This document shows, one piece after another, positions 24,657 to 32,867 of a DNA stretch of 37,240 nucleotides (the stretch's first letter is position 1; each line of letters begins with the position of its first letter). A program made the translations under genes and the position numbers. Source of the stretch: a virus (lineage: Duplodnaviria > Caudoviricetes). Location: positions 1 through 37,240 of the IMG/VR virus record IMGVR_UViG_3300043442_000183, one strand, 5' to 3'. Under the pieces are notes generated by a model. The model was not told the DNA's origin, did not search any database, and saw nothing but the letters and a program-made list of their open reading frames with translations.

Positions 24657-24705
24657 GACACGCCGCAGCTTTACGGGTTGACACTTACCCTAACTATGGT
24701 AAATT
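24657..24705 (+). promoter_or_regulatory. Strong housekeeping-sigma early promoter with GACAC motifs
   Basis: TTGACA (24678-83), 16 nt, TAAATT (24700-05) preceded by TGG (extended -10); CGACACGCCG at 24657-66. Confidence 0.75.
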
Positions 24706-24754
24706 GAGCTCACTGGCCCACTTGGACCAGATGAACCGAGAAGGGAAAACTAGA

Positions 24755-24943
24755 ATGAAGCAAGTAACTAAGTCAGAGCTCAACCAGCTTGCAGTCAGTG
24801 GAAAGTCAGCTCTTGCAATTATTCAACGAGCTATCAAAGAGGAAAACTATGATGAAGCTCTAGAGTACTGGGCCTATCTCAACCATATGGTGACGGGCCT
24901 AAAGCTCGGAATCGATGCACGCCGCGTTCAGAAGGGAGCATAA
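24755..24943 (+). CDS. Early hypothetical protein (62 aa)
   Basis: ATG at 24755 with GAAGGG RBS; the track's start at 24587 lies upstream of the promoter. Confidence 0.7.
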   Translation: MKQVTKSELNQLAVSGKSALAIIQRAIKEENYDEALEYWAYLNHMVTGLKLGIDARRVQKGA

Positions 24944-24945
24944 CC

Positions 24946-25134
24946 GTGACTCGTAAAGATTACGTTGAGCTAGCTAAGATTATGGCTAATCTCCGAGAGT
25001 ATATCGAGCCACGCACCCGTGAGGGTCGCGGCTTCGATGAGACTATATCCAAGCTCATTGACTGGCTATCAGAGGATAACCCCCGCTTCGATGCAGCTCG
25101 CTTCGAGTCTGCGATATACGACTCCCGCGCCTAG
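24946..25134 (+). CDS. Early conserved phage protein (MTRKDY...DNPRFD..RF family)
   Basis: Recognisable motif; GAAGGG RBS. Confidence 0.75.
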   Translation: MTRKDYVELAKIMANLREYIEPRTREGRGFDETISKLIDWLSEDNPRFDAARFESAIYDSRA

Positions 25135-25186
25135 TTGCTGGACTATCGAGCACGGGCCTACCGTGCTCGGTGGCCTAGTCACTGGG
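25130..25186 (+). other. Long intergenic RNA hairpin 1 (RNase III-like site)
   Basis: 26-position stem with G-U pairs and two mismatches, loop GCCTA. Confidence 0.65.
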
Positions 25187-25214
25187 ACTGGGAAAGAATG
25201 AAGGGAATCAAGCG

Positions 25215-25379
25215 ATGAAAGTTACACGGAAAGAGCTGATGGAGTTGGACCAGATGCTTCATCAAGCCTACGCGACGATAGCGTGTGGAATCGACCCCGT
25301 AGAGAATAAAGAGCTGATAGCTAGACTCGGAGAGAATATCCGAGCTATTCGAGCATATATTGAGGGAGCTAAGCGATGA
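25215..25379 (+). CDS. Early hypothetical protein (54 aa)
   Basis: Read by hand: MKVTRKELMELDQMLHQ...; GAAGGG RBS and ATGA overlap. Confidence 0.7.
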   Translation: MKVTRKELMELDQMLHQAYATIACGIDPVENKELIARLGENIRAIRAYIEGAKR

Positions 25380-25564
25380 GCGAGAGTCAGAGTCAGCTCA
25401 ATCTCACGGAGCTCATATTCCTCAAGAGCGTGTTAGAGAATAAGATTGAAGAATTAGAGAGTAAGGGGGAACCCTTGGGACCGCTGACGGACGCGCTGCG
25501 GAAAGTAAAGTCACAGCGTGAAGCAATTCTCACTAGTAATTGGCAAGAATCGAATCGGGCCTAG
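25376..25564 (+). CDS. Early hypothetical protein
   Basis: 62 aa, GAGGGAG RBS. Confidence 0.7.
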   Translation: MSESQSQLNLTELIFLKSVLENKIEELESKGEPLGPLTDALRKVKSQREAILTSNWQESNRA

Positions 25565-25620
25565 TTGCTGGACTATTACCCCAAGGGGGCGTACTCTTGG
25601 GGTAATGGCCTAGTCGCTAG
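25561..25620 (+). other. Long intergenic RNA hairpin 2 (RNase III-like site)
   Basis: 27-position stem; lower stem nearly identical to hairpin 1, upper stem different. Confidence 0.65.
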
Positions 25621-25655
25621 ATTAGCGGCGGGATAGCTTGAAGGGAGCTAGTTAG

Positions 25656-26363
25656 ATGGACACTATAAACGCAACGCGTACCGAGCAAGTAATTTATGAG
25701 ATGCTGACTGAAAGTACGGGCCGCCATATTCTCGACTCTGGCGGGGAGAATGGTAGAGCGTGGCAGCGTAACCAAGCGCTGACGCTCGACGACTTCCGCA
25801 ATGAAGCGCGAACCACTTTCGACGTGAAGTGGGGCGACGTTACCGTATCGCTCTTTCATCACTTGGTAGACCGTCTCAAGTATGAAGAGCGGGAGAATGC
25901 CTACTTTCACGAGTGGGCCAAAGATAAAGACGATTACTGGCTTCAGCTCGTGGAAGATTACGCAGACTTCAGAGGATGGACCGTTGCATTCTCGGAGAAT
26001 AGCTATAACCGCGAATCTAATCTCTCGCAAGTCATCCAGTACACCGTCTATGACTCTGGCCTAGTGGCCCTGCAAGTACACGGGGGAGCTGACGTACGCG
26101 GCGGATATACCGCGCCCCGCATCTTCTCTATCGGTGACTTCTATGAACTAGCGCTGGAGAATGGGACTATCTATTGCACGGGCGATGCAGTCGATAGCGA
26201 TGGCCCGCACCGTCTCGACGGTAACGCTCACGAGTGGTATTACGAGGGAGAGTATTCCCGTGAGTATTCTCCCTATGCAATGAGCCAGCGCCGCGACCTA
26301 TTGAAGCTGGACTATCTACCGTGTCCAGTATGCGGCGCACCTATGAAGGATGGGGGCCAGTAA
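25656..26363 (+). CDS. Early acidic protein with C-terminal CPVC
   Basis: 235 aa; MLTESTG.HILDSGG..GR.WQRN and QVHGGADVRGGYT.P motifs; function unknown. Confidence 0.8.
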   Translation: MDTINATRTEQVIYEMLTESTGRHILDSGGENGRAWQRNQALTLDDFRNEARTTFDVKWGDVTVSLFHHLVDRLKYEERENAYFHEWAKDKDDYWLQLVEDYADFRGWTVAFSENSYNRESNLSQVIQYTVYDSGLVALQVHGGADVRGGYTAPRIFSIGDFYELALENGTIYCTGDAVDSDGPHRLDGNAHEWYYEGEYSREYSPYAMSQRRDLLKLDYLPCPVCGAPMKDGGQ

Positions 26364-26521
26364 TGAGACTTACACGACGTGGGAAGCTAGTCGCTGCCCT
26401 ACTGGTGGCAGCACTGGCCTACCTATGGATGAACGTTGAACCAATATATGGAGACTGTAGGCAGACTATCGAGGGAGAAGTCTGCATATTACAAGGATAC
26501 GAGTGGAAGGGAAGCAAATAA
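26363..26521 (+). CDS. Small membrane-anchored early protein
   Basis: MRLTRRG followed by a hydrophobic helix; TAATG coupling. Confidence 0.7.
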
Positions 26522-26682
26522 TGACACTGGATGAAGCCAAGAGAATCGTAGGGAATCAACCTACGTGGGCGCTGAAGAATATGGTCAGAGCTCTGAAGAT
26601 GCTCCCACTGATGAACACGGTGGAAGATGAGAAGCGCCTAGCGGCGGCAGTGCTAGTGATAAAGAGTAGGAGAGGAAAGTGA
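26521..26682 (+). CDS. Early hypothetical protein (53 aa)
   Basis: Read by hand: [25 protein letters not shown]...; GAAGGG RBS. Confidence 0.7.
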
Positions 26683-26870
26683 TGAAGCTATATGAGATGG
26701 CAATAGTGACTCAAGTACTCACGGTCCGAGCTAATAGTGAGGATGAAGCTGAAGCTAAGTATGAAGCATACTTCAGTGAGGAGGAGTGTCCCTGCGGGTC
26801 CGAGGGATGCGACTGCGTGGAAGATAGTGAAGATACCTACCATATAACTAGCGAGATAGGAGAAGGGTAA
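26682..26870 (+). CDS. Early acidic Cys-rich protein
   Basis: V.A.SEDEAE motif and CPC....CDC; coupled to both neighbours. Confidence 0.65.
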   Translation: MKLYEMAIVTQVLTVRANSEDEAEAKYEAYFSEEECPCGSEGCDCVEDSEDTYHITSEIGEG

Positions 26871-27031
26871 TGACTATAGATGAAGCACTGAAAGAGCTGG
26901 AGAGTAGGGAAAGAGAGTATGGCCTACGTTCCGAGAATCTAAGTAATGGCGACTCACTTTACTATGAAGGGTTGAGTGATGCGTATGGAGTGGCAAAGAA
27001 TCTACTGAAGGGAGTAAAGGGTAATGACTAA
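26870..27031 (+). CDS. Early hypothetical protein (53 aa)
   Basis: Read by hand: MTIDEALKELESRE...YYEGLSDAY; TAATG coupling. Confidence 0.65.
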   Translation: MTIDEALKELESREREYGLRSENLSNGDSLYYEGLSDAYGVAKNLLKGVKGND

Positions 27032-28207: not shown

Positions 28208-28496
28208 GGCGAGGACACTAGCTGCGGTAAAGCAGTCGGTGTACTACCGTAACTATCGACGAGCAAGGGACCGAGCACTGGTACGTCTAGCTCAAGCGCA
28301 TCCCGACGATTATCGAACTTTGTTCGAGGAGGAGAGAGCAAGAGATGAAGCAGAAGGTAAGACTTGGACTAGCAGCGGTACTTCTATCATTCCCCCTGAT
28401 GATGGTCGGGTTAGACCACGCACGCACACCATACTTAGACGCATCGAAACCAACAGTAATAAAGAGAATGAAAGCAACGTGGGAGGAGAAGCGTGA
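28194..28496 (+). CDS. Hypothetical protein (YRRARDRALVRL motif)
   Basis: GGAGG RBS; the 3' half overlaps the SLT gene. Confidence 0.6.
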   Translation: MNEDKARTLAAVKQSVYYRNYRRARDRALVRLAQAHPDDYRTLFEEERARDEAEGKTWTSSGTSIIPPDDGRVRPRTHTILRRIETNSNKENESNVGGEA

Positions 28497-28767
28497 AAAT
28501 AAAAGGACCGCAAAAGAATATGCTTGGGTTGCGTTTGGTTGGAGAGGACGAGAATGGGAATGCCTTCTCGCTTTATGGACCAAAGAGAGCAGGTTTGACC
28601 ACTACGCCCAGAACCCAGCAAGCTCAGCTTTCGGAATTGCTCAACTCCTTGGAGAGAGAAGTCGAAAGCCTGAACTCCAAATACTGCGAGGCTTACGTTA
28701 CATTGGTGAGCGTTATGGAACACCTTGCAAGGCTTACAAGTTTGCTCTTACCCACAAACACTACTAA
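28345..28767 (+). CDS. Lytic transglycosylase (SLT-like) with N-terminal signal/anchor
   Basis: WECL..LW.KES...A.NP.SSAFGIAQLL...QI.RGLRYI..RYGTPC motif. Confidence 0.85.
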   Translation: MKQKVRLGLAAVLLSFPLMMVGLDHARTPYLDASKPTVIKRMKATWEEKRENKRTAKEYAWVAFGWRGREWECLLALWTKESRFDHYAQNPASSAFGIAQLLGERSRKPELQILRGLRYIGERYGTPCKAYKFALTHKHY

Positions 28768-28770
28768 GAT
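28742..28770 (+). promoter_or_regulatory. Putative promoter for the sRNA
   Basis: TTGCTC (28742-47), 17 nt, TAAGAT (28765-70); no ORF downstream on this strand before the terminator. Confidence 0.5.
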
Positions 28771-28775
28771 AGAGG

Positions 28776-28848
28776 ATTACTGATACCCCTTCGTCAGTAA
28801 TAGATAACCCCGCAGGCCAAGAGTGCTAACTGCGGGGTTATTTTATTT
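28776..28848 (+). ncRNA. Putative small regulatory RNA with an anti-SD loop
   Basis: Hairpin ATTACTGA/TCAGTAAT with loop TACCCCTTCG, followed by a 12-bp terminator hairpin and T-rich tail. Confidence 0.5.
28804..28848 (+). terminator. Intrinsic terminator at the early/replication operon convergence
   Basis: ATAACCCCGCAG-N14-CTGCGGGGTTAT-TTTATTT. Confidence 0.8.
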
Positions 28849-29022
28849 ATCGGTGGAGTAAAAGCCGCTACCTTTGAAGTGGGTCGGAGGTGATTCCCAC
28901 TTGCGGGAAAGAGTAGTACCGCATTCTTTGGTAGGGCAGTCATACTCCACTTCGATGTCGTGGATGCTGCGAATAACGAGGAGGACGTTACCGCAAGCTG
29001 GACATTCATATTCATATTTCAT
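28843..29022 (-). CDS. FmdB-family zinc ribbon protein (59 aa)
   Basis: Read by hand: MKYEYECPACG...CPTKEC...FKGSGFYSTDK; ATGA overlap with the sigma gene. Confidence 0.85.
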   Translation of the reverse strand: MKYEYECPACGNVLLVIRSIHDIEVEYDCPTKECGTTLSRKWESPPTHFKGSGFYSTDK

Positions 29023-29908: not shown

Positions 29909-30317
29909 TTGGTAACTCAGGCCACTTGTTATCAAGGACAAGGATTGCAATAGCAGCATAGTTCATCAGGTCAATGAAGGAATCCCTCAAGGATTCGTTG
30001 CTTGGTGCAACTCCTGAATCAAGGAGATTATTGATCCTGGCAGTCTTATCCCACATTCGTACACGCAGTCCGTTGAGTGGTCCACCTGGACTGTGAGCGA
30101 TGTTCTTCGGACCGTAATCGTGATGTTTTCTAAGCAGGAGGGAACCTGCGGTATCATAGATTCGCCAGACATCTTCGACAAACTGCCCACTTACTTTCTT
30201 ATTGGAATCGGTTGACAAGTAATAGTCCCAGCCTTGTAATCTATCGCTACTATTATCATCCCCATATCCATCAATAATCTGGCTGCCTCTTGGAGATCCT
30301 TTTTCTTGCTCACTCAC
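29901..30317 (-). CDS. DUF1599 / nucleotide modification associated domain 1 protein
   Basis: KHHDYG..NI...VRMWDK.ARI.NL...ESLRDSFIDLMNYA motif. Confidence 0.8.
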   Translation of the reverse strand: MSEQEKGSPRGSQIIDGYGDDNSSDRLQGWDYYLSTDSNKKVSGQFVEDVWRIYDTAGSLLLRKHHDYGPKNIAHSPGGPLNGLRVRMWDKTARINNLLDSGVAPSNESLRDSFIDLMNYAAIAILVLDNKWPELPND

Positions 30318-30958
30318 TTGACTCCTCCTACTAGGTTGGCTGTTGCTTCTTTACCATTCACCAGATAAAAGTCTGTGATGTCCATACCTGGTGGTAATTG
30401 TACTATTTGTGAGTTTAGAACCTCACCTGCGACACGCCTAGAGAACTCTGCCCCAGGATTAGTGCCATCTTCTTTCACATCATTGTCTCCAAGAATATAC
30501 ACAACATCAAAGCCACCGAATAACTTTGGATAGAAAGGCTTCCACGCCGCTACTCCTGGTACTCCTACTGCTGGTACACCTACGACTGCATCCATAATGA
30601 TTGCATCAAACTCACCCTCGCAGATAACGATGCTCTTAGTTGCAGACATTGTAGCTACAACGTTGAACAGGTGAGTCTTCTGCCCTACTGGTGAACCATA
30701 CTTAGGCTTTCCATCATCTAATCTTCTGAACTTGAAACCTACACAGATGTCTAACGCTGTGAAGTATGGAATAGAAATCCATCCCTCGTATCCTTGATGT
30801 CCCTCTATCGGATCGGTGATAGTACCTAGGCGATAGCGAGCAGCAACCTCTTCAGATATTCCACGTCCTGCGAGGTAGGCTAGGGCCTCGTCGCTTATTG
30901 CCTCCGCGTAATGGTGAGCCGCCTCCTGTAACGATTTCGCCTGCTCTTGCGAGAGCAT
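30314..30958 (-). CDS. DNA primase, catalytic TOPRIM part
   Basis: YL.GRGI, ICEGEFDA and GDND motifs. Confidence 0.88.
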   Translation of the reverse strand: MLSQEQAKSLQEAAHHYAEAISDEALAYLAGRGISEEVAARYRLGTITDPIEGHQGYEGWISIPYFTALDICVGFKFRRLDDGKPKYGSPVGQKTHLFNVVATMSATKSIVICEGEFDAIIMDAVVGVPAVGVPGVAAWKPFYPKLFGGFDVVYILGDNDVKEDGTNPGAEFSRRVAGEVLNSQIVQLPPGMDITDFYLVNGKEATANLVGGVK

Positions 30959-31229
30959 CCTTGAACCCCACATTCTCTAATTCCATAATGACATTGACTG
31001 CATTGCCACCCTTACCACAGGTGTGACAGTAATACAAATTGTTATATGTATCGATGACTGCACTCTTGCGAGAGTCATCGTGCATACAACAGCGCACCGA
31101 TACGTTGCGCCCCTCTTTTACTTCTCCTCCAAAGTGCCTGACTACTTCAGCTATGGAGACTGCGTTCGCATCGGAGCTGGCTTTTGACCTCTTCGTACGA
31201 ACCACCCTGGACCAGTCTTGTGCTGGCAT
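30852..31229 (-). CDS. DNA primase, CHC2 zinc-binding part
   Basis: CCMHDD...YYCHTCGKGG...E.VGFKDAL. Confidence 0.85.
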   Translation of the reverse strand: MPAQDWSRVVRTKRSKASSDANAVSIAEVVRHFGGEVKEGRNVSVRCCMHDDSRKSAVIDTYNNLYYCHTCGKGGNAVNVIMELENVGFKDALARAGEIVTGGGSPLRGGNKRRGPSLPRRTWNI

Positions 31230-31327
31230 CCGCAATCTCCTTCGCAGTTCTGGTGAAACTCCTTAGCCATATCAGTCTTACCGATAGTGTTGTGGTGACC
31301 TGCCCACGCACATTTACTGCAGATCAT
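31151..31327 (-). CDS. Small Cys/His zinc-finger protein (58 aa)
   Basis: Read by hand: MICSKC...H.NC...CGCQH. Confidence 0.65.
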   Translation of the reverse strand: MICSKCAWAGHHNTIGKTDMAKEFHQNCEGDCGCQHKTGPGWFVRRGQKPAPMRTQSP

Positions 31328-32034: not shown

Positions 32035-32867
32035 AAAACCCTCGATAGATTTGAGTTATAGACCATCCTGCCGTAAGCATCGCTGTCATTGATATGACAG
32101 GTAGCAAAGTTTACAAAGAGTCCTATGTAATCCTTGCCGTCAGCTTGGTGTTGTCCAAATCGGTTCTTGACTGCTGCAACCCGAAGCGTATGCTCAAACG
32201 GATTGTAGCCAAGAGTAAGTATCATCGCAGGTAACTGACTCACCTTGCCGTGAATAGCACGACGTGCTGGTGGTTCAGTCATATCCTTACCATACTCACT
32301 CTGTTCTGATACGTGGTGCAGAACAAGCACACAGGCTTCTGTCTTGCGTGCCATATCGTGTAGCTCCATCATTATTTGACGTAAGCCTGCCCACTCATTA
32401 TCAGATTCAGCGACGACGTTCATCAGGTTATCTATGACGATCAGTTGTGGACTGATTCCATAGAGTTCAATGTAAGCCTTTACTTCCGCCTCAATATCAT
32501 CAAGGTTCGGTGATGAATCAAAGACCCACTGTATGTGTGATATATCCTGTAGACTCTCATCATAGGCACCAATGTTGATGCTGATTTGATTCTCTACAGT
32601 TTCTTGGGTGTGACCTGCTAGATGTGCCGAAGCACGTAGCATCACAGTTGCAGCGTCAGTATCTGCAGAAAAGAACAGAGTAGGCACCTTGGCCTTGATA
32701 GCATACACAAGAGCGAACATAGACTTTCCAGCATTCGGTGCAGCGGCAACCATACACACTTGACCTCGCCGAAACTTTATGCCCTTTTTGTCTAGGTCTT
32801 TCCACACAGTCGGAAGTGGCTGCGCCAATGTATGGGCAGTCCTCCAAGCGCGGTCTAACCTAAGCAC
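32031..32867 (-). CDS. DnaB-like / RecA-fold helicase
   Basis: Walker A AAPNAGKS, LIVIDNL Walker B, VLHH and VKNRFG motifs; lacks the DnaB N-terminal domain. Confidence 0.85.
   Translation of the reverse strand: MLRLDRAWRTAHTLAQPLPTVWKDLDKKGIKFRRGQVCMVAAAPNAGKSMFALVYAIKAKVPTLFFSADTDAATVMLRASAHLAGHTQETVENQISINIGAYDESLQDISHIQWVFDSSPNLDDIEAEVKAYIELYGISPQLIVIDNLMNVVAESDNEWAGLRQIMMELHDMARKTEACVLVLHHVSEQSEYGKDMTEPPARRAIHGKVSQLPAMILTLGYNPFEHTLRVAAVKNRFGQHQADGKDYIGLFVNFATCHINDSDAYGRMVYNSNLSRVL

Follow-up and report, generated by a model that had tools for sequence, protein, structure and literature searches.

Small RNAs with C-rich loops, such as those of the RNAIII type, are among the closest known systems to the locus described here. 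In 6C RNA, two stem-loops each present some six consecutive C residues. In actinobacteria the C-rich loops of 6C RNA bind mRNAs without a chaperone (PMC6486639). The c4 RNA of phages P1 and P7 is a phage-encoded trans-acting RNA with loops that pair near the RBS of a phage message (PMC12197685). In phage T4, the RegB nuclease inactivates early messages via a motif in the SD region and spares most middle and all late messages (PMC3014915). Early-translation shut-off in phages without a RegB-like nuclease is largely an open question, and an RNA co-evolving with a class-wide RBS tag would constitute a protein-free temporal switch.

A repeated and over-conserved RBS motif, the SAS, precedes non-structural genes of the cluster K mycobacteriophages and the cluster EF Microbacterium phages (PMC3203893, PMC11373665, PMC7302621, PMC12699233). 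Its role is stated as unknown in three of these papers, still so in 2024-2025 (PMC11373665, PMC7302621, PMC12699233). Four K1 phages carry a single inverted SAS, and whether an RNA or a protein binds the SAS was left open (PMC3203893). The preliminary description of the present locus knew of no account of an RNA of the kind proposed here in such phages. We found none in full-text searches of a literature collection without most subscription journals. The available part of a 2025 review of phage sRNAs contains no word beginning with 'actino' or 'mycobacter' (PMC12197685).

The phage genome and its putative host

The window, i.e. the whole stretch of DNA that was analysed, is a virus record of 37,240 bases, estimated to be 93% complete. 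According to PHROG matches, the minus strand carries the terminase, portal, capsid and tail genes, and a second minus-strand operon with an exonuclease, WhiB, a helicase, RusA, a primase, a sigma factor and an FmdB-like gene. The primase is split over two overlapping ORFs (30314-31235), as it is annotated in phage Manuel. The plus strand carries a block of small ORFs from 24755 up to an SLT/transglycosylase-like gene (28345-28767; PHROG 12661, E 3e-16). A predicted promoter, TTGACA-16-TG-TAAATT, with 10 of 12 consensus matches, is located 5' of this block (24678-24705, plus strand). The gene layout and this promoter suggest that the block comprises the early genes, the SLT-like gene being the last of the operon. 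The FmdB-like zinc-ribbon gene (28843-29022, minus strand; PHROG 1076, E 3e-6) closes the converging sigma/primase operon. Of 58 ORFs compared with the PHROGs, many had no match, and none was named as an integrase, repressor or antirepressor or as a member of a RegB family.

The terminase is 46% identical to that of the cultured Planktophila phage F5 (PMC10202952). Together with the WhiB gene and the gene order, this identity points to a freshwater actinobacterium as the host. A scan of a genome collection named no host: the three loci obtained, two short terminase contigs in MAGs labelled Chitinophagales and one weak match, were taken as uninformative.

A hairpin unit between the converging operons

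A short unit, framed by its own predicted promoter and terminator, is located at the end of the early operon. The predicted -35 hexamer TTGCTC (28742-28747, plus strand), a weak match, lies within the SLT coding sequence, and is followed after a 17-nt spacer by the predicted -10 hexamer TAAGAT (28765-28770), the TAA of which is the SLT stop codon. The predicted 5' end, near 28776, coincides with the first base of an 8-bp stem, and all these parts are found where the preliminary description had placed them. The arms of this first stem-loop (28776-28801, plus strand) are ATTACTGA (28776-28783) and TCAGTAAT (28794-28801), and its loop (28784-28793) contains the seed CCCUUC (28787-28792), the exact complement of GAAGGG, with an unpaired probability of 0.99; opening the loop core costs 0.01 kcal/mol. 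CCCTTC occurs seven times on the plus strand, and only the hairpin copy is closed by an uninterrupted 8-bp stem. A second hairpin (28804-28841) of 12 bp with a 14-nt loop follows, and its tail, TTTATTT, extends to 28848 and overlaps the FmdB stop. A G+C-rich stem followed by a U-rich tract, as found here, is typical of an intrinsic terminator. The 73 bases from 28776 to 28848 fold at -31.4 kcal/mol (z -6.84), and none of 200 shuffled sequences folded as well. Both strands of the region fold.

A consensus scan listed neither the promoter of the hairpin nor its terminator; the terminator scan has a loop limit of 8, against the 14-nt loop found here. No Rfam family was matched at the gathering score, and at E<=10 six chance-level matches were obtained, none of them 6C. 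The unit of about 70 nt had been described as devoid of ORFs. Its stem, loop and 12-bp terminator stand, but two ORFs without a family match touch it: an alternative-frame plus-strand ORF (28493-28783) that terminates inside the stem, and a minus-strand ORF (28794-29015) that overlaps the unit.

The 14-base terminator loop (28816-28829) has the core CAAGAGTGCTAA, which recurs in 51 of 163 loci, and is kept in locus L006 despite a changed stem. No second copy beyond chance was found in the window. The loop resembles half a CIRCE operator.

GAAGGG tags in front of the early genes

GAAGGG occurs ten times on the plus strand of the window, and eight of these copies fall within 24740-27012. It is present before seven of the first ten early ORFs, three times as TGAAGGG, as had been counted earlier for this complement of CCCUUC, and before none of the 51 minus-strand starts. 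The tags belong to early ORF 1 (24740-24745), ORF 2 (24931-24936), ORF 3 (25200-25205, with the additional T), ORF 5 (25640-25645, with the T; 235 aa, PHROG 11344), ORF 7 (26506-26511), ORF 9 (26862-26867, merely 2 nt from the ATG) and ORF 10 (27007-27012, with the T), all on the plus strand. The tagged genes include several small ORFs, mostly without a family. The mean duplex energy of loop and RBS is -10.2 kcal/mol for the first ten early starts, as compared to -7.5 kcal/mol for the eight later plus-strand starts and -5.6 kcal/mol for the 51 minus-strand starts, one of which reaches -11.8 kcal/mol. The perfect seed in the window is 6 bp long, and no early start has a 7-base Watson-Crick match.

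Tails of the 16S rRNA that differ between hosts were considered as the origin of the tags and rejected, since the middle and late genes of the window do not use GAAGGG.

Conservation of the unit among related phages

Scans anchored on the SLT-like gene, the sigma factor and the motif yielded 226 loci, 194 of them within the clade; a 16-base loop pattern gave 71 matches, of which many were unrelated coding matches. A curated pyrimidine loop was present 3' of the SLT-like gene in 163 of 172 redundant loci, and several of the nine misses are cut-short sequences. The unit stays at the end of the early operon regardless of the preceding gene, and adjoins the converging operon even where up to ~1.5 kb of other genes follows the SLT-like gene. 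Two architectures were observed: two hairpins, as in the window, or a single hairpin with the loop inside the terminator (L049-L056, L063-L079). A hairpin with a T tract is also found 3' of the loop in relatives. The RNAs of L066, L071, L073, L076, L057, L217 and L406 carry two pyrimidine motifs, one in a 5' leader or first loop and the second in the terminator loop.

In the relatives the stem varies in sequence yet stays paired, and the loop moves between different stems. The core stem pairs switch among A-U, G-C and C-G: AT-CG-TA-GC-AT in the window, GC-CG-TA-GC-GC in L147, GC-CG-TA-AT-GC in L149 and GC-CG-CG-AT-GC in L012. We use only these pair types, because the count of paired cells (120 of 126) is circular and mixes two registers; MAFFT did not bring the short and long loops into one register. 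In 55 stems, read on the plus strand, 30 G-U pairs were found versus 9 A-C pairs. Since folding itself favours G-U, this excess is modest support for the plus strand as the working copy.

The predicted promoter is conserved as well. Of 62 distinct upstream sequences, 44 have a TANNNT box whose last base lies 3-9 nt from the stem, as do 25 of 33 upstream clusters; at six control offsets the numbers are 1-7 sequences and 1-5 clusters (the count omits 18 rows of long-leader or mis-anchored types). In these clusters, whose upstream genes are unrelated, the -10 box has been retained or regained with the same spacing to the stem. Relatives in which the spacer is non-coding have TTGACA, TTGAGA, TTGACG or TTGCCA as the -35 element, 16-18 nt before the -10 box.

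A class A loop (see below) on another stem, followed by a terminator, was observed in an unrelated phage-like contig (L102, 5990-6060), where it adjoins an opposite-strand gene with the RBS AAAGGATAA.

Loop and tag change together

The loops were curated by hand into classes, with these pairs of loop and cognate tag: A (UAUCCUUUC/GAAAGGAUA), B (CUCUCUUUC/GAAAGAGAG) and C (CCCUUC/GAAGGG), the last being that of the window. The first set comprised 67 loci left after removal of duplicates, each with an early region of 2.2 kb or more and up to 11 tagged sites in it. The seven class C loci have 6.9 GAAGGG tags on average, versus 0.4-0.6 in classes A and B; the 29 class A loci have 1.9 GAAAGGATA tags versus 0-0.2 elsewhere, and the nine class B loci 2.9 GAAAGAGAG tags versus 0-0.2 elsewhere. 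In class A, the match extends beyond the SD sequence into the spacer (GAAAGG-ATAAG).

The same trend was found in a held-out set of 25 new loci, 18 of which were classed before counting. The class A loci of this set carry 1, 2, 0, 2, 5, 0, 0 and 1 cognate tags versus 0 in all ten others (p 0.003), and the class C loci 5, 0, 4 and 2 versus 0-2 in the others (p 0.03). For the 87 pooled loci, the mean number of tags in the own versus the other classes is 1.79 versus 0.10 for GAAAGGATA, 2.8 versus 0.30 for GAAAGAGAG and 4.29 versus 0.59 for GAAGGG. For three held-out loci (L346, L350 and L353) the terminator loop led to an initial class C assignment, under which they had 0, 0 and 1 tags. The loop of their first hairpin is CUCUCU, and their top-ranking early motifs include AGAGAG; this post hoc observation was kept outside the counts.

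The sharpest test of covariation is the comparison of homologous early genes, in which the gene is held constant. Of 88 early protein families, 11 contain tagged members that differ in tag type and come from different loop classes (two or more of each); in these, 39 of 42 tags match the loop of the phage that carries them, as compared to 23.3 +/- 3.1 after shuffling within families (maximum 35 in 5000 shuffles). The loop thus follows the early RBS in relatives, also in homologous genes. Considering all early starts, 15.3% are matched by the phage's own RNA, versus 1.9% by the opposite strand and 0.3% by the upstream stretch; unlike RNAs match 5.9-14.9% by 6-7-mers.

It had been proposed that late and host genes are spared. 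For the late genes this fits the sequence data: cognate tags precede 156 of 1204 early-strand ORFs versus 5 of 659 opposite-strand ORFs in the 87 loci, the ORF lists including non-genes. The motif thought to be spared, GAAAGG, is however part of GAAAGGA, with which the commonest loop in the relatives pairs. Such loops would owe their specificity to the part of the match that lies in the spacer.

Relatedness and discordant loci

A minimum of 20 changes of loop class was counted among the 67 rows, and a minimum of 24 for the 87 loci on the SLT tree. The trees are FastTree trees of mosaic genomes. Independent pairs favour cognate pairing in 12.2 of 16 (sign test median p 0.077) and 11.1 of 14 cases (p 0.057), and on the SLT tree of 87 loci in 14.5 of 20 (sign p 0.041; Wilcoxon median p 0.009, with a wide range over the pairings). 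Class-free tests on 91 loci gave 16.2 versus 11.8 with all unpaired 7-mers (p 0.57), and, with hairpin-loop words, 13.1 versus 5.2 for 6-mers (sign p 0.096), 12.7 versus 7.8 for 7-mers (p 0.38) and 15.5 versus 3.5 for 8-mers (p 0.012 and 0.004). The tree-corrected tests share one direction but are not all significant (p 0.004 to 0.57), and relatedness weakens the covariation. What would be expected of a trans-acting sRNA, an unpaired seed complementary to distant targets that is conserved or co-varying, is found here, with mixed support after correction for the tree.

Loop and tag are discordant in L006, L172, L042, L045 and L218; L006, for instance, combines a class A loop with four GAAGGG tags. 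Possibly, the discordant loci are recent recombinants between the early region and the RNA locus. A tag is lacking in 7 of 38 class A loci.

The FmdB reading frame of 46 of 91 class A loci (L009, L081 and 44 others) traverses the terminator hairpin and has its stop codon within the sequence complementary to the loop, which would also make the RNA antisense to the last fmdB codons. The coding constraint on FmdB could help to conserve the class A loop.

Similar arrangements in other phage lineages

In the clade of phage F5 most early genes are tagged with GACAGGAG, and so is the gene directly behind a long hairpin that displays CUCCUGUC in its loop. This hairpin is located in the leader of the exonuclease (middle) operon and its stems differ between the phages (L231, Planktophila phage F5, at ~32680-32740, minus strand; also L238, L267, L274, L284, L306 and L311). 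In all six Streptomyces Beephvirinae examined, most right-arm genes are tagged with GGG(G)AGAGA and a loop with CUCUCUCCCC on a covarying stem lies at the border of the tagged block, downstream of which other RBSs are used (L230, Streptomyces phage Manuel, at ~38075-38105, minus strand; also L232-L236). The Beephvirinae loop is nested in a longer stem within the early arm, no terminator follows it, and the stems contain G-U pairs on the early strand. The hairpin in Manuel was found with a 7-base core, whereas a search for a 9-10-base inverted tag had missed it.

In mycobacteriophage Adephagia the inverted SAS forms the loop of a long hairpin in the gap between genes 92 and 93 (L477, 30683-30695; 58682-58694 of the record), behind a conserved TTG-17-TAGACT promoter. 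The hairpin region is conserved in 194 records, and late expression begins near this gap (PMC11373665). A perfect anti-SAS loop was found in three of nine aligned cluster K phages. The predicted covariation of loop and SAS failed in this cluster: Unicorn and Fefferhead have no SAS changed to fit their CUCCCUUCCC-type loop, but carry 15 and 14 copies, respectively, of the standard SAS core and none of the predicted core. TM4, Pixie and Marshawn (9, 16 and 15 SAS copies) showed no matching loop in the right arms searched, and a BLAST query built from the SAS motif returned nothing useful. Tags can therefore persist without a matching loop and exist for other reasons, and the RNA may have been added to a tag that has its own role. 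Since the hairpins of the other lineages differ in place and sequence, we do not claim homology to the window RNA.

Proposed mechanism and alternative explanations

As loop and tag change together across the relatives, a small RNA that silences the tagged genes by base-pairing is likely. We consider it probable that a discrete RNA of ~70 bases pairs with the early RBSs and damps early translation, a self shut-off. The earlier proposal of an sRNA that shuts off the early genes is partly supported: its core, an RNA loop directed at the early RBSs, withstood the comparative tests that had been set to refute it, while the RNA itself and the repression are predictions from sequence. A SigA-type promoter overlapping the SLT stop would produce the RNA, as its conservation suggests; in some relatives, the loop would instead be the 3' end of the early message. 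By analogy with 6C RNA, no chaperone would be needed for the open loop to pair with the tagged start regions. Such pairing with the SD sequence would outcompete the 16S tail, which would meet GAAGGG only through a wobble. As the RNA accumulates, translation of the first early proteins would fall, resulting in a delayed shut-off or damping, and the RNA would be the counterpart of T4 RegB. Timing is the weakest step of this scheme, because the predicted promoter looks host-like and could fire early. The same pairing would also serve to damp toxic early proteins or to keep out a second phage.

The pairing might also come from the 3'-terminal part of the long early transcript, acting in cis or following its processing, so that the loop would be an autoregulatory brake on the operon. 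This would account for the 8 of 33 upstream clusters that lack a -10 box at the usual distance, in several of which the stem overlaps the SLT stop, and for the Beephvirinae loop that is nested in the early arm with no terminator behind it. However, the fixed distance of the -10 box behind unrelated genes in the other 25 clusters points to a separate transcript, and one cis loop cannot cover up to 11 tagged sites, which makes this explanation unlikely.

Alternatively, the RNA could serve exclusion or immunity by silencing an incoming phage with the same tag, in which case the tags would diversify to escape. The many changes of loop class on the SLT tree suggest diversifying selection, and c4 RNA provides a precedent, since its loops near the RBS give P1/P7 heteroimmunity (PMC12197685). 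Still, self shut-off predicts self-matching equally well, there is no sign of a carrier state and no integrase or repressor was named among the 58 ORFs scanned, so that we regard an immunity function as improbable.

An inverted copy of the tag would explain the covariation equally well if the working copy were the other strand or the DNA itself, i.e. a tag-displaying decoy for a phage protein (a CsrB-like logic) or a DNA-binding site. The converging sigma-FmdB transcript does head toward the hairpins, and is translated into the loop in the 46 class A loci mentioned above. Yet the promoter and the T tract lie on the plus strand, and the excess of G-U over A-C pairs (30 versus 9) and the G-U pairs on the early strand in Beephvirinae point the same way; a decoy or DNA site therefore seems very unlikely.

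The loop could furthermore be a general anti-Shine-Dalgarno mimic directed against host messages or ribosomes, its match to the early genes being a by-product of the likeness of SD sequences. The commonest loop core in the relatives, UCCUUUC, resembles the actinobacterial 16S tail, and the 5.9-14.9% of early starts matched by unlike RNAs would fit such a mimic. On the other hand, the loops deviate from the SD consensus exactly as their own tag does and reach into the spacer (GAAAGG-AUAAG), and the tag is missing from the middle and late genes of the same phages (5 of 659 ORFs); we give a host-directed role very little credence. Finally, although the site is a convergence point where both strands fold and a 6-mer is short, two ordinary terminators with a chance loop match are largely refuted, since a terminator loop needs no particular sequence, yet this one tracks the tag in homologous genes (39 of 42) and moves between stems while keeping the -10 box in front. 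Even taken together, the decoy, host-directed and chance readings are rather unlikely.

Comparison with known systems

It is possible, if doubtful, that actinophages widely write a private and changeable RBS code for a whole gene class that is read by one RNA key. Lock and key would then drift together, timing early shut-off, and co-infecting relatives would silence or escape each other. A function for the unexplained SAS would follow, as well as orthogonal RBS-sRNA pairs for Actinobacteria. The proposed switch is directly testable in culture, since counterparts occur in the Streptomyces phages Manuel, Immanuel3 and Abafar and in mycobacteriophage Adephagia; the natural pairs of loop and tag could serve as controls for specificity.

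The window tag resembles the SAS in being a repeated motif at the RBS position that is limited to non-structural genes, found at seven of the first ten early starts and at none of the 51 minus-strand starts. K1 genomes have one inverted SAS, which in Adephagia lies within a hairpin loop. In contrast to the SAS, a 13-base consensus with upstream ESAS inverted repeats, the core shared in the window is 6 bases long. Moreover, counts in six K phages showed a constant SAS with a varying loop, whereas the tag of the present clade (6-11 bases) changes with the loop. As with T4 RegB, early messages would be inactivated as a class through a motif in the SD region. RegB, a protein nuclease, works with the cofactor S1 on an invariable GGAG site, whereas in the present phages an RNA is predicted to read the tag, and the code can change.

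The closest parallels are with 6C and c4 RNA. Like the 6C (B11) sRNA, the window RNA would pair through a pyrimidine-rich loop with the purine-rich starts of many mRNAs, Hfq-free and in an actinobacterial cell. It differs from 6C in being phage-encoded and without an Rfam match, in having one loop with CCCC rather than two six-C loops, and in its loop sequence, which varies between phages in step with the private tag that each puts on its genes. Like c4 RNA, it would be a trans-acting phage RNA, with loop and target differing in step between related phages (PMC12197685). However, c4 controls one antirepressor message for prophage immunity (PMC12197685), whereas up to 11 early genes share the tag in the present phages, where no lysogeny genes were recognised and the RNA has no Rfam match. 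The predicted RNA of the window would work like 6C and c4 RNA, yet it belongs to neither family.
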